Part shown: positions 16,380 to 25,317 of the stretch, piece by piece | How the letters are laid out: each line of letters opens with the position of its first letter | Numbering within the stretch: the stretch's first letter is position 1 | Origin: Escherichia coli | GTDB taxonomy: Bacteria; Pseudomonadota; Gammaproteobacteria; Enterobacterales; Enterobacteriaceae | Strand: one strand, 5' to 3' | Assembly (NCBI RefSeq): GCF_044324785.1 | Contig: NZ_CP172127.1 | DNA: 64,000 nt | Program-made: the position numbers and the translations under genes | The notes under the pieces: generated by a model | Told to the model about the DNA's origin: nothing | Databases searched by the model: none | The model's input: only the letters and a program-made list of their open reading frames with translations

Positions 16380-17729
16380 TTAGATAGCCCAGCCACCCGC
16401 ATAGAAGGTCACCAGCGCCACAGCGATAACGACCGTACCGATGTTCAACTTGCGCCATTCGCCGGAAACCAGACGACCAATCACCAGAGTCGCGAAGCCG
16501 ATCATGATGCCTGTTACGATGTTACAGGTCAGCACGATGAATACCGCCGTAACCAGACCCGCCATCGCATCAACAAAATCAGCAAAGTCGATTTTCGCCA
16601 CGTTGCTCAGCATCAGCAGGCCAACGTACATCAGCGCCGGAGCCGTTGCATACCCCGGAACGAGGTAGGAGAGCGGAGAGAGGAACAGAATCAGCAGGAA
16701 CAGCACGCCAACGGTGATAGCCGTCAAACCGGTTTTACCGCCCGCCGCCGTACCTGCCGCAGACTCGATGTATACCGCTGCCGGAGCCGCACCCACCAGG
16801 CCAGAGAAAACGCTGCTCATGGAGTCAGTGGTCAGTGCCTTCCCGCCGTCGATAATTTGCCCATCTTTATCCAGCAGGTTCGCCTGGCCGGCGACGGCAC
16901 GGATAGTTCCGGTGGCATCAAATACTGCCGTCATCACCAGCGCCAGAACGCTTGGCAGGACTACAGGATTCAGCGCGCCCATAATATCCAGGCTGCCAAT
17001 CAGTGAATTGCCGTTTTCATCGCTCAATGAAGGCATGGCGAAAACACCGGAGAAATGGACGTTAGGATCGAAGATCAAACCGACAATTGAGATACCGATA
17101 ATGGTCAGCAGAATGCCACCAGGGACTTTCAGTTTTTCCAGGCCGATGATCGCCGCCAGACCTACCAGTGACATAATCACCGGGAAGGTCGCGAAATCAC
17201 CCAGCGCAACGGGCAGACCATCAAGCGGGTTTTTAATCACCAGACCGACACCATTCGCAGCAATCAGCAGCAGGAACAGACCGATACCGATCCCCGTGCC
17301 GTGCGCCACACCGTGCGGCAAGTTGCGCAAAATCCAGCTACGGATACCCGTGGCAGAAATGACCGTAAACAGCACACCCATCAGGAACACGGCACCCAGC
17401 GCGACAGGTACGCTAATATGTTGCCCCAGCACCAGACTGAATGCGGTAAACGCCGTCAGGGAGATGGCGCAACCAATCGCCAACGGCAGATTAGCCCACA
17501 GACCCATCACGATAGAACCGAGTCCGGCAACCAGACAGGTCGCAACGAAAACTGCCGCAGGCGGGAAGCCCGCTTTACCCAACATGCCTGGAACGACGAT
17601 AACCGAGTAGACCATCGCCAGAAACGTTGTTAACCCGGCAACCACTTCCTGACGGACAGTGCTTCCACGTTGTGAAATTTTAAACCAGGCGTCGAGTGAA
17701 CCGCCGGTACGCGCTGATGGCGTAGACAT
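16380..17729 (-). CDS. ghxP: Guanine/hypoxanthine permease (NCS2/AzgA-like)
   Basis: 449-aa polytopic membrane ORF; synonym yjcD. Confidence 0.88.
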
Positions 17730-17843
17730 AAGAAAACATCCCCTGAGAGTTTAATTTTCGTCAAGATGCGTGGCGGACAATCCCCTGCCAGCGAAACGTT
17801 ATCTTCCTGCTCCAGGTTTGCGGCAATTTGGTGCGTCGCAAAA

Positions 17844-18001
17844 AAGCAAACGTTTAGCTCCGCGCATACAAAACGGGTGGTAAAAAAAGCAAACGATTAT
17901 CCGGCGATCATAGCGGCTTTTTCAACCGAAGTTTGCTGCTTTTTTCTCTTTTATTGTCTTGACGATGAAAAACCAGGCAATTGATGCGCAAACGTTATCG
18001 T
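17844..18001. promoter_or_regulatory. Two PurR-box-like sequences upstream of ghxP
   Basis: aagcaaacgtttagct (17844-17859, 12/16 to ACGCAAACGTTTGCGT with perfect GCAAACGTTT core) and gcgcaaacgttatcgt (17986-18001, 13/16); a third partial gcaaacg at about 17889. Confidence 0.4.
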
Positions 18002-18250
18002 CGATGCGCAAGATTGCAGCGTTATCGAGCCGTATACCGTTCTGGATTGCGATAAAAAATCGTCTGAGATGACAAAAATATTGCGGCTAAAAAGTATACT
18101 TTTACACTGGCGAAGAAACGTCGGTGACATACAATTAAAGCATCAACACCAACCGGAACCTCCACCACGTGCTCGAATGAGGTGTGTTGACGTCGGGGGA
18201 AACCCTCCTGTGTACCAGCGGGATAGAGAGAAAGACAAAGACCGGAAAAC

Positions 18251-18284
18251 AAACTAAAGCGCCCTTGTGGCGCTTTAGTTTTGT
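18251..18284. terminator. Bidirectional rho-independent terminator (probable soxR 3'UTR terminator)
   Basis: Perfect 13-bp stem aaactaaagcgcc / ggcgctttagttt with loop cttgt, A-run upstream and T-rich run downstream. Confidence 0.6.
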
Positions 18285-18300
18285 GTTTGCGGATAATTCC

Positions 18301-18440
18301 AAAAGAGCTCGATCTGTCCCCTCGCCCCTTCGGGGAGAGGGTTAGGGTGAGGGGAACAGGCAGCACCAGTGCAAACATTTACCCTCACCCCGGCCCCATA
18401 GTTAACGATGAGTCAGCTTGTCCTTGTGGCGCTTTAGTTT
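18301..18440 (+). ncRNA. ryjA: Small RNA RyjA (placement from recollection of K-12 coordinates relative to soxR)
   Basis: Convergent with and overlapping the 3' end of soxR; region contains GC-rich hairpins (cccctcgcccc/ggggagaggg; gggtgaggg/ccctcaccc). Exact ends not verifiable from sequence alone. Confidence 0.45.
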
Positions 18441-18898
18441 TGTTCATCTTCCAGCAAGCGTGCGCCTGTGCCTTCTTCTCCTAAGCGGTCGCCCGGGTTA
18501 CGCAATGGGCAATCACTGCGCGAAAGGCAGCCACAACCAATACATCCGTCCAGTTCGTCACGCAGCGCCACTAAGGTATGAATGCGCCGATCCAACTCTT
18601 CTCGCCATTGGGACGAAAGCTGTTTCCACTCTTTCGCACTTAATGTATGCCCTTCGGGCAACACGCCAAACGCTTCACGAATGGTCGCCAGCGGAATGCC
18701 AATGCGCTGAGCAATTTTGATGATTGCGACATATCGCAACACATCACGTTTATATCGCCGCTGATTGCCACTATTACGGATACTGCTAATCAACCCTTTG
18801 CTTTCATAGAAATGCAGCGCCGATACCGCCACACCGCTGCGTTTCGCCACTTCGCCGGGGGTTAGCAGCGCTTTAATGCGGGGTAATTTCTTTTCCAT
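18434..18898 (-). CDS. soxR: Redox-sensing MerR-family regulator SoxR ([2Fe-2S])
   Basis: 154 aa; MerR HTH; C-terminal cysteine cluster [17 protein letters not shown]. Confidence 0.95.
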
Positions 18899-22494: not shown

Positions 22495-25317
22495 ATGGAT
22501 AAGATCGAAGTTCGGGGCGCCCGCACCCATAATCTCAAAAACATCAACCTCGTTATCCCCCGCGACAAGCTCATTGTCGTGACCGGGCTTTCGGGTTCTG
22601 GCAAATCCTCGCTCGCTTTCGACACCTTATATGCCGAAGGGCAGCGCCGTTACGTTGAATCCCTTTCCGCCTACGCGCGGCAGTTTCTGTCACTGATGGA
22701 AAAGCCGGACGTCGATCATATTGAGGGGCTTTCTCCTGCCATCTCAATTGAGCAGAAATCGACGTCTCATAACCCGCGTTCTACGGTGGGGACAATCACC
22801 GAAATCCACGACTATTTGCGTTTGTTGTTCGCCCGCGTCGGCGAGCCGCGCTGCCCGGACCACGATGTACCGCTGGCGGCGCAAACCGTCAGTCAGATGG
22901 TGGATAACGTGTTGTCCCAGCCGGAAGGTAAACGCCTGATGCTGCTCGCGCCAATCATTAAAGAGCGCAAAGGCGAACACACCAAAACGCTGGAAAATCT
23001 GGCAAGCCAGGGTTACATCCGTGCTCGTATTGATGGCGAAGTCTGCGATCTTTCCGATCCGCCGAAACTGGAACTGCAAAAGAAACATACCATTGAAGTG
23101 GTGGTTGATCGCTTCAAGGTGCGTGACGATCTCACCCAACGTCTGGCAGAGTCGTTTGAAACCGCGCTGGAGCTTTCCGGTGGTACCGCGGTAGTTGCCG
23201 ATATGGACGATCCAAAAGCGGAAGAGCTGCTATTTTCCGCCAACTTCGCCTGCCCAATTTGCGGCTACAGTATGCGTGAACTGGAACCACGCCTGTTTTC
23301 GTTTAACAACCCGGCGGGTGCCTGCCCGACCTGTGACGGCCTTGGCGTACAGCAATATTTCGATCCTGACCGCGTGATCCAGAATCCGGAACTGTCGCTG
23401 GCAGGTGGTGCGATCCGAGGCTGGGATCGCCGCAACTTCTATTACTTCCAGATGCTGAAATCGCTGGCAGATCACTATAAGTTCGACGTCGAAGCGCCGT
23501 GGGGCAGCCTGAGCGCGAACGTGCATAAAGTGGTGTTGTACGGTTCTGGCAAAGAAAACATTGAATTCAAATACATGAACGATCGTGGCGATACCTCCAT
23601 TCGTCGTCATCCGTTCGAAGGCGTGCTGCACAATATGGAGCGCCGTTATAAAGAGACGGAATCTAGTGCGGTACGCGAAGAATTAGCCAAGTTTATCAGC
23701 AATCGCCCGTGCGCCAGCTGCGAAGGGACGCGTCTGCGTCGGGAAGCGCGCCATGTGTATGTCGAGAATACGCCGCTGCCTGCTATCTCCGACATGAGCA
23801 TCGGTCATGCGATGGAATTCTTCAACAATCTCAAACTCGCAGGTCAGCGAGCGAAGATTGCGGAAAAAATCCTTAAAGAGATTGGCGATCGCCTGAAATT
23901 CCTCGTTAACGTCGGCCTGAATTACCTGACACTTTCCCGCTCGGCAGAGACACTTTCTGGCGGTGAAGCCCAGCGTATCCGTCTGGCGAGCCAGATTGGT
24001 GCGGGCCTGGTTGGCGTTATGTACGTGCTGGACGAGCCGTCTATCGGCCTGCACCAGCGCGATAACGAGCGCCTGTTGGGTACGCTTATCCATCTGCGCG
24101 ATCTCGGTAATACCGTGATTGTGGTGGAGCACGACGAAGACGCGATTCGCGCCGCCGACCATGTGATCGACATTGGCCCGGGCGCAGGTGTTCACGGCGG
24201 TGAAGTGGTCGCAGAAGGTCCGCTGGAAGCGATTATGGCGGTGCCGGAGTCGTTGACCGGGCAGTACATGAGCGGTAAACGCAAGATTGAAGTGCCGAAG
24301 AAACGCGTTCCGGCGAATCCGGAAAAAGTGCTGAAGCTGACAGGCGCACGCGGCAACAACCTGAAGGACGTGACGCTGACGCTGCCAGTCGGTCTGTTTA
24401 CCTGCATCACAGGGGTTTCAGGTTCCGGTAAATCGACGCTGATTAACGACACACTGTTCCCGATTGCCCAACGCCAGTTGAATGGTGCGACCATTGCCGA
24501 ACCGGCACCGTATCGCGATATTCAGGGACTGGAGCATTTCGATAAAGTGATCGATATCGACCAAAGCCCAATTGGTCGTACTCCGCGTTCTAACCCGGCG
24601 ACCTATACCGGCGTGTTTACGCCTGTGCGCGAACTGTTTGCGGGCGTACCGGAATCCCGTGCGCGCGGTTATACGCCAGGACGTTTCAGCTTTAACGTCC
24701 GTGGCGGGCGCTGCGAAGCCTGTCAGGGCGACGGCGTGATCAAAGTGGAGATGCACTTCCTGCCGGACATTTACGTACCGTGCGACCAGTGCAAAGGTAA
24801 ACGCTATAACCGTGAAACGTTGGAGATTAAGTACAAAGGCAAAACCATCCACGAAGTGCTGGATATGACCATCGAAGAGGCGCGTGAGTTCTTTGATGCC
24901 GTGCCAGCTCTGGCGCGTAAGCTGCAAACGTTGATGGACGTTGGCCTGACGTACATTCGCCTGGGGCAGTCCGCAACCACACTTTCTGGTGGTGAAGCCC
25001 AGCGCGTGAAGCTGGCGCGTGAGCTGTCAAAACGCGGAACCGGGCAGACGCTGTATATTCTTGATGAGCCGACCACCGGTCTGCACTTCGCCGATATTCA
25101 GCAATTGCTCGACGTACTGCATAAACTGCGCGATCAGGGCAACACCATTGTGGTGATTGAACACAATCTCGACGTGATCAAAACCGCTGACTGGATTGTC
25201 GACCTGGGACCGGAAGGCGGCAGTGGCGGCGGCGAGATCCTCGTCTCCGGTACGCCAGAAACCGTCGCGGAGTGCGAAGCTTCGCATACGGCGCGCTTCC
25301 TCAAGCCGATGCTGTAA
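22495..25317 (+). CDS. uvrA: Excinuclease ABC subunit A
   Basis: 940 aa; two ABC ATPase modules ([18 protein letters not shown]) and zinc-finger CxxC motifs. Confidence 0.98.

Follow-up and report, generated by a model that had tools for sequence, protein, structure and literature searches.

PurR operators around the predicted ghxP promoter of Escherichia coli and their spacing across Enterobacteriaceae

The Escherichia coli gene ghxP (yjcD) encodes a 449-aa guanine/hypoxanthine transporter, and the DNA upstream of it contains several sequences that resemble operators of the purine repressor PurR. The question raised by this locus is whether ghxP is under direct PurR control and, if so, what more than one operator could contribute at a single promoter. 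We analysed the locus within a stretch of 64,000 nucleotides (hereafter the window), which is E. coli DNA in reversed orientation relative to K-12. ghxP, the regulated gene, occupies positions 16380-17729 on the minus strand, as given by the open reading frame list and by the RefSeq annotation of the identical sequence in K-12 and other E. coli.

Upstream of ghxP, and divergent from it, is the gene for the small RNA SraL/RyjA (sraL/ryjA; 18142-18282, plus strand, with its start at 18142), which matches Rfam family RF01408 with 153 bits and is annotated as ryjA in K-12. It is followed by soxR, soxS and pdeC. The ghxP–sraL intergenic region is 413 bp long. Between the SraL terminator and the ghxP start the window differs from K-12 MG1655 at five bases, none of which is in a PurR box, and the ghxP upstream region was found in 5,408 of the 5,426 E. 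coli genomes that are complete. Compared with K-12, the window has 159 bp inserted at 18283-18441, after the soxR stop codon and before the terminator of SraL. The insertion carries a GC-rich dispersed repeat, with a median of five partial copies per genome, and duplicates ACAAAACTAAAGCGCCACAAGG; its full form occurs in only two of the 5,426 complete genomes.

Strength and number of the PurR boxes

A first-pass annotation, made from the sequence alone, had described two 16-mers with a shared GCAAACGTT core at 17844-17859 and 17986-18001, 115 and 257 bp upstream of ghxP. Both were found as placed, and the two distances agree when counted from the A of the ghxP ATG. As written in the window, the first (box 1, the proximal PurR operator) reads aagcaaacgtttagct and the second (box 2, the distal PurR operator) reads gcgcaaacgttatcgt; on the minus strand, in the sense of ghxP, they read AGCTAAACGTTTGCTT and ACGATAACGTTTGCGC, respectively. 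Both match the definition of a PurR operator as a 16-bp imperfect palindrome, ACGNAAACGTTTGCNT, with a central CpG.

The boxes were scored with a PurR weight matrix derived from the 27 other PurR motifs of Cho 2011 Table 1, with the yjcD site excluded. Box 1 (18.88 bits, the best match in the window) and box 2 (18.33 bits) rank first and second in the whole window on both strands, with the next match at 12.4 bits, and both fall within the range of the 27 training sites, for which the leave-one-out median is 18.6. According to the exact score distribution, matches reaching 18.3 bits should number 0.046 per window and 0.0003 within the 413-bp intergenic region, against two observed. By this measure boxes 1 and 2 are strongly non-random candidate PurR sites. 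The 9-mer GCAAACGTT by itself is not significant, with three copies in the window (at 17846, 17988 and 24924-24932) against 1.04 expected and with 10 of 100 shuffles reaching three, and the bare 9-mer was dropped as evidence. The 16-mer context of the third copy, at 24924-24932, is below the top 25 matrix matches, and a PurR site is thus unlikely there.

The partial gcaaacg that had been noted near 17889 is present at 17889-17895, within a weaker PurR-like operator (box 3; GGATAATCGTTTGCTT, 17887-17902, minus strand, 11.35 bits). Its score is weak but the central CpG is kept, and all three boxes share one orientation relative to ghxP. About 3.5 matches of this strength are expected per window and nine are observed, such that box 3 is weak by score alone; in many species carrying AGATAAT it scores 14.1 bits. 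A fourth PurR-like site in the leader (box 4; AAGATAACGTTTCGCT, 17790-17805, minus strand, 8.0 bits) is left doubtful as a genuine operator, with only its ACGTTT core conserved and a score of at least 9 bits in only 4 of 80 genomes.

The presence of several spaced boxes had been called unusual, and applying this matrix to 16 further PurR target regions of K-12 agrees. At no single promoter among the 16 do two sites reach 18 bits, and 12 regions contain just one that reaches 10 bits. Because the primary sites of these regions went into the training of the matrix, only the secondary sites are informative; these were seen at purR (88 bp from the primary site, 10.9 bits), xanP (98 bp, 12.5 bits) and adeP (32 bp, 12.2 bits), and the sites of ygfT and uacT, 681 bp apart, are at different promoters. 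The scanned second purR site matches the second PurR operator of purR, and box 3 scores at least as high as this site. The three secondary-site distances, like the 99 bp at ghxP described below, are near multiples of 11 bp, in a small sample and post hoc. Of the 17 K-12 targets scanned, ghxP is the one most densely supplied with PurR sites. Two sites are not without precedent, as purR and purA have two PurR sites each, with only one annotated at many other targets (Meinhardt 2012).

Like the pur regulon operators of purF, purT, purMN, xanP and adeP, the ghxP boxes are 16-bp imperfect palindromes with a central CG at the promoter of a purine gene, and they share corepressor-dependent binding and repression by exogenous purine; most pur regulon targets, however, have one site of at least 10 bits, whereas ghxP has two of at least 18 bits and a third on the predicted -10 hexamer. 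purR autoregulation and purA resemble ghxP in that each gene has multiple PurR sites, among them a weaker one and some located beyond the transcription start, and both purR sites reportedly lie downstream of the start. ghxP differs from these two in having three sites that flank or overlap the promoter, of which one is held at a constant distance far upstream.

Published PurR control of ghxP

Occupancy of this region by PurR and purine-linked repression of ghxP are both on record. The PurR ChIP-chip study of Cho 2011 reports a peak 'ryjA/yjcD' (4,275,855-4,276,485; log2 ratio 2.08) that was called with adenine only, and box 2 is the exact motif given for it. The peak is 630 bp wide and spans all three boxes, such that occupancy is not assignable to individual boxes at ChIP-chip resolution. 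Sastry 2019 includes ghxP in the PurR-1 iModulon and lists the same box 2 site, at 4278206. Box 1 is the yjcD site at -130 that was predicted by comparative genomics in a 2015 regulon-reconstruction paper (PMC4576408, Additional file 3), which treats yjcD as a RegPrecise PurR-regulon gene and proposes AAGATAACGTTTCGCT at -76, the box 4 of this study, as an extra predicted site. No earlier report of box 3 was found in the PurR literature searched.

Adenine represses ghxP (Rodionova 2021), and yjcD is 4-fold down with the adenine precursor HAP (Kozmin 2013). Kozmin 2013 also cites PurR-dependent repression of yjcD by adenine and, by its account, validation of the PurR–yjcD link in DREAM5 (Marbach 2012). 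The sole dissenting point is that yjcD is unnamed in Cho 2011 among the newly found genes changed more than 2-fold. The first-pass annotation, in proposing direct PurR control of ghxP, had looked to ChIP and expression data for an answer. The first of these gives occupancy of the region with adenine only, the boxes not being resolved, and the second gives adenine- and PurR-linked repression, with the omission in Cho 2011 as the one discordant note. Together with the scores given above and the conservation described below, these data make it highly probable that PurR controls ghxP directly, through several operators.

PurR control of ghxP, and boxes 1 and 2 themselves, are therefore already published. 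The additions offered here are modest ones drawn from sequence comparison, namely a conserved three-site layout around the predicted promoter, with box 3 on the predicted -10 hexamer and box 2 held rigidly at 99 bp.

Conservation and spacing around the predicted promoter

A consensus scan of both strands of 17600-18500 gave TTGAAA-18-GATAAT as the sole promoter-like site. The predicted -35 hexamer TTGAAA (17920-17925, minus strand) is invariant in 76 distinct sequences, and the predicted -10 hexamer GATAAT (17896-17901, minus strand) follows it after an 18-bp spacer that is fixed in length and variable in sequence between species. GATAAT is also the left half of box 3, and is kept in two Mangrovibacter genomes that have lost the PurR half of that box. 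An invariant -35, a retained -10 and a spacer of variable sequence form the pattern expected of a real promoter. From the consensus scan, ghxP transcription would start near 17889 (approximately 4,278,319 in K-12 NC_000913.3). Relative to this putative start, box 3 would span about -13 to +3 and overlap the -10, the centre of box 1 would be at approximately +38, in the transcribed leader, and the centre of box 2 at about -104.5. No acceptable -35/-10 pair for a second promoter was seen by eye beside box 1 or box 2, where the scan, too, gives only the one site; a sigma-54-like CTGGCAG-N-TTGTCC in the leader was dropped, its -12 GC element being out of register by eye.

Conservation was assessed in 80 ghxP loci from Enterobacteriaceae genomes, all with at least 90% protein identity. 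Box 1 is conserved in all 80, box 2 in 79 and box 3 in 78, each in the same orientation throughout. Support for box 3 comes from this conservation rather than from its score, and the conservation could derive wholly from the -10 hexamer and neighbouring bases.

Box 2 and box 3 are separated by exactly 99 bp in every sequence that has both (78/78), and the 60-bp spacer from box 2 to the -35 (17926-17985, minus strand) has zero indels in 78 species, despite an identity to E. coli with a median of 55% and a minimum of 38%. The spacer contains phased A/T clusters with a periodicity of 9-10.5 bp, together with A-tracts resembling an UP-element, located around -43 to -46 and -53 to -55. A hidden coding region behind the fixed 99 bp was rejected, as no reading frame is conserved across the 99-bp module and any one frame is open in at most 30 of the 78 species. 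A 72-aa open reading frame on the plus strand (17766-17984), antisense to the ghxP promoter and leader, is probably no gene, because frames through the promoter module are open in a minority of species.

Lineages that have lost one of the boxes indicate what the 99 bp are measured to. Box 2 of Mangrovibacter is still exactly 99 bp from the -10 position with the PurR half of box 3 gone, so that the spacing constraint ties box 2 to the promoter and not to box 3. The heptamer TTGCGCA (18005-18011, minus strand), located 8 bp upstream of box 2, is conserved as highly as box 2 and is a direct repeat of the box 2 end at 20-bp spacing. In Pluralibacter, box 2 and the flanking TTGCGCA are both lost, and the promoter and box 3 are kept.

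The distance of box 1 to the other two boxes varies. In 55 sequences box 3 and box 1 are 42-46 bp apart; in another 25, insertions widen the gap to 88-205 bp. Box 1 is near 114-135 bp from the ATG in most sequences. The insertions, of 70-190 bp, are in the ghxP leader between box 3 and box 1 in Klebsiella, Raoultella and several other genera, and many of them hold GC-rich inverted repeats (e.g. GCTCCCCC...GGGGGAGC).

The leader has several further features. A structured leader RNA was rejected by comparison with shuffles, as the predicted 180-nt leader folds no better than these (z = 0.11), and what is seen is a single small hairpin with covariation. This 6-bp hairpin (TGCGAC ... GCCGCA; 17819-17840, minus strand) is directly after box 1 and its T-run, has compensatory changes at all six pairs across 53 species, and is followed by no T-run. 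There is also a copy of the ribosome binding site, CAGGGGAU, at 17780-17787 (minus strand), in addition to the real one, AGGGGA, at 17739-17744, and a complementary UCCGCC at 17772-17777 (minus strand) that could pair with either copy. All three elements (17739-17787, all on the minus strand) are nearly invariant, which places their pairing beyond a covariation test.

How the boxes may act

We infer the following division of roles among the boxes. PurR dimers with hypoxanthine or guanine would bind the ghxP operators and stop further uptake. The promoter is most likely formed by TTGAAA (17925-17920), the 18-bp spacer and GATAAT (17901-17896), and PurR on box 3, which covers both the -10 and the start, would keep RNA polymerase out. 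The strong box 1, approximately 38 bp into the leader, would provide a second block, either by close-range clash with polymerase or as a roadblock of the purB type. Box 2, also strong and approximately 104 bp upstream, would be an auxiliary site, with its exact distance to the promoter under selection.

PurR is said to repress purB by a transcriptional roadblock, and box 1 resembles the purB operator in lying within a transcribed region, where the exact promoter distance need not matter. Roadblock action would leave the distance between box 1 and the promoter free to vary between species, and box 1, downstream of the predicted start, is found 42 to 205 bp from box 3. The purB operator, however, is far inside the coding sequence, whereas box 1 is in the leader and only about 38 bp from the predicted start, so a steric clash is also possible. 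Taking the boxes together, we tentatively propose that the three conserved operators of ghxP may form one PurR unit, the distal of them acting by its geometry: it is held 99 bp from the -10, across a spacer that diverges in sequence and has phased A/T clusters.

Box 2 could act on the promoter itself and not on another PurR dimer, as an anti-activator or as a repressor at a distance, a reading that we consider possible if somewhat doubtful. PurR bends DNA, and a dimer bound on a fixed face near -104 could disturb promoter wrapping, contacts between the UP-element and the alpha-subunit, or a spacer-bound activator. In favour of this reading, it is the promoter and not box 3 from which box 2 keeps its fixed distance; the UP-like A-tracts and phased A/T clusters that fill the spacer are consistent with it, as is the conserved flanking TTGCGCA that is lost along with box 2 in Pluralibacter. 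However, the spacer showed no recognisable activator motif, the literature searched gave no experimental precedent for such action by PurR, and the absence of indels could equally reflect several adjacent elements that are each constrained in position.

The first-pass annotation had suggested instead that several boxes could imply looping. A PurR dimer on box 2 would then touch one on box 3 (or box 1), looping the DNA in the manner of lac O1-O3 or the GalR repressosome, and the strong distal box 2 would help to fill the weak site over the -10. The spacing of exactly 99 bp from box 2 to box 3, seen in 78/78 species in spite of spacer divergence, would suit such a loop, as would the A/T clusters phased at 9-10.5 bp, which suggest curved DNA. 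About 11 bp per turn is reported for looping in vivo, and 99 bp would correspond to approximately nine such turns; the secondary sites of purR (88 bp) and xanP (98 bp) are likewise near multiples of 11, although this is a small sample considered post hoc. The lac O1-O3 and GalR OE-OI pairs are also like ghxP in pairing a strong operator with a weak one at a constant separation of roughly 100 bp around a promoter.

The proteins differ: LacI forms tetramers and the association of GalR dimers is helped by HU, whereas PurR is without the LacI tetramerisation domain (Meinhardt 2012, and established knowledge) and its regulatory domain did not display looping behaviour. Specifically, the PurR regulatory domain chimera LLhP had no significant spacing dependence in an assay to which GalR- and TreR-based chimeras responded (Meinhardt 2012). 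The fixed distance at ghxP, unlike those of lac and GalR looping, also outlives the loss of its partner operator, since the 99 bp to the -10 are kept in the two Mangrovibacter genomes lacking the PurR half of box 3, and box 1 is free in its spacing. On the chimera assay, the free box 1 spacing and the Mangrovibacter arrangement, we rate PurR–PurR looping as unlikely, and the earlier suggestion is unsupported.

It is most improbable that box 2 serves to control the divergent sraL/ryjA, or to block read-through from upstream, in place of acting on ghxP. The peak label ryjA/yjcD of Cho 2011 would fit such a role, and a read-through block is conceivable in that most genera have a co-directional gene whose end is a short way upstream of box 2. 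Against this, box 2 precedes the SraL start by 148.5 bp, which is too far for simple repression, and this distance differs among genera, from 148 bp up to more than 900 bp, whereas that to the ghxP promoter is fixed. The value of 148.5 bp is found in Escherichia only, and in most other genera it is approximately 820-950 bp. Because the distance varies by genus, box 2 is assigned to ghxP and was rejected as an sraL element. An additional divergent promoter had been suggested earlier for this region; there is a divergent gene, sraL/ryjA, but a link to box 2 is not supported, the distance being unconserved.

The larger distance in most genera is accounted for by a co-directional GST-like gene in between. 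This gene is found between soxR/sraL and ghxP in most genera (for example at 1533-2036 in locus L022, where the open reading frame looks truncated, and at 1487-2155 in locus L007), and in Escherichia, without it, sraL is within 150 bp of box 2. Judged by these arrangements, sraL/ryjA is a neighbour outside the predicted PurR unit.

Finally, Cho 2011 and Sastry 2019 list box 2 alone, but that it should be the only functional site, with the others being chance or decaying matches, is scarcely credible given that box 1 outscores it, is present in 80 of 80 genomes, is the comparative-genomics site of PMC4576408, and is of a strength for which 0.0003 matches are expected in the intergenic region.

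The reading that we retain is that of a direct PurR target with several operators. GhxP imports hypoxanthine and guanine, which are the corepressors of PurR, and its repression closes a direct negative feedback on uptake; this loop is already in the literature, and the present finding adds no new member to the regulon. The rigid placement of box 2 at 99 bp hints at PurR action at a distance, which is undescribed for PurR. If the distal operator does work through geometry, then PurR, which is regarded as a simple steric or roadblock dimer, would also act from about -104, whether by reshaping the upstream promoter DNA, by blocking an activator or UP-element contact, or by looping assisted by another factor.
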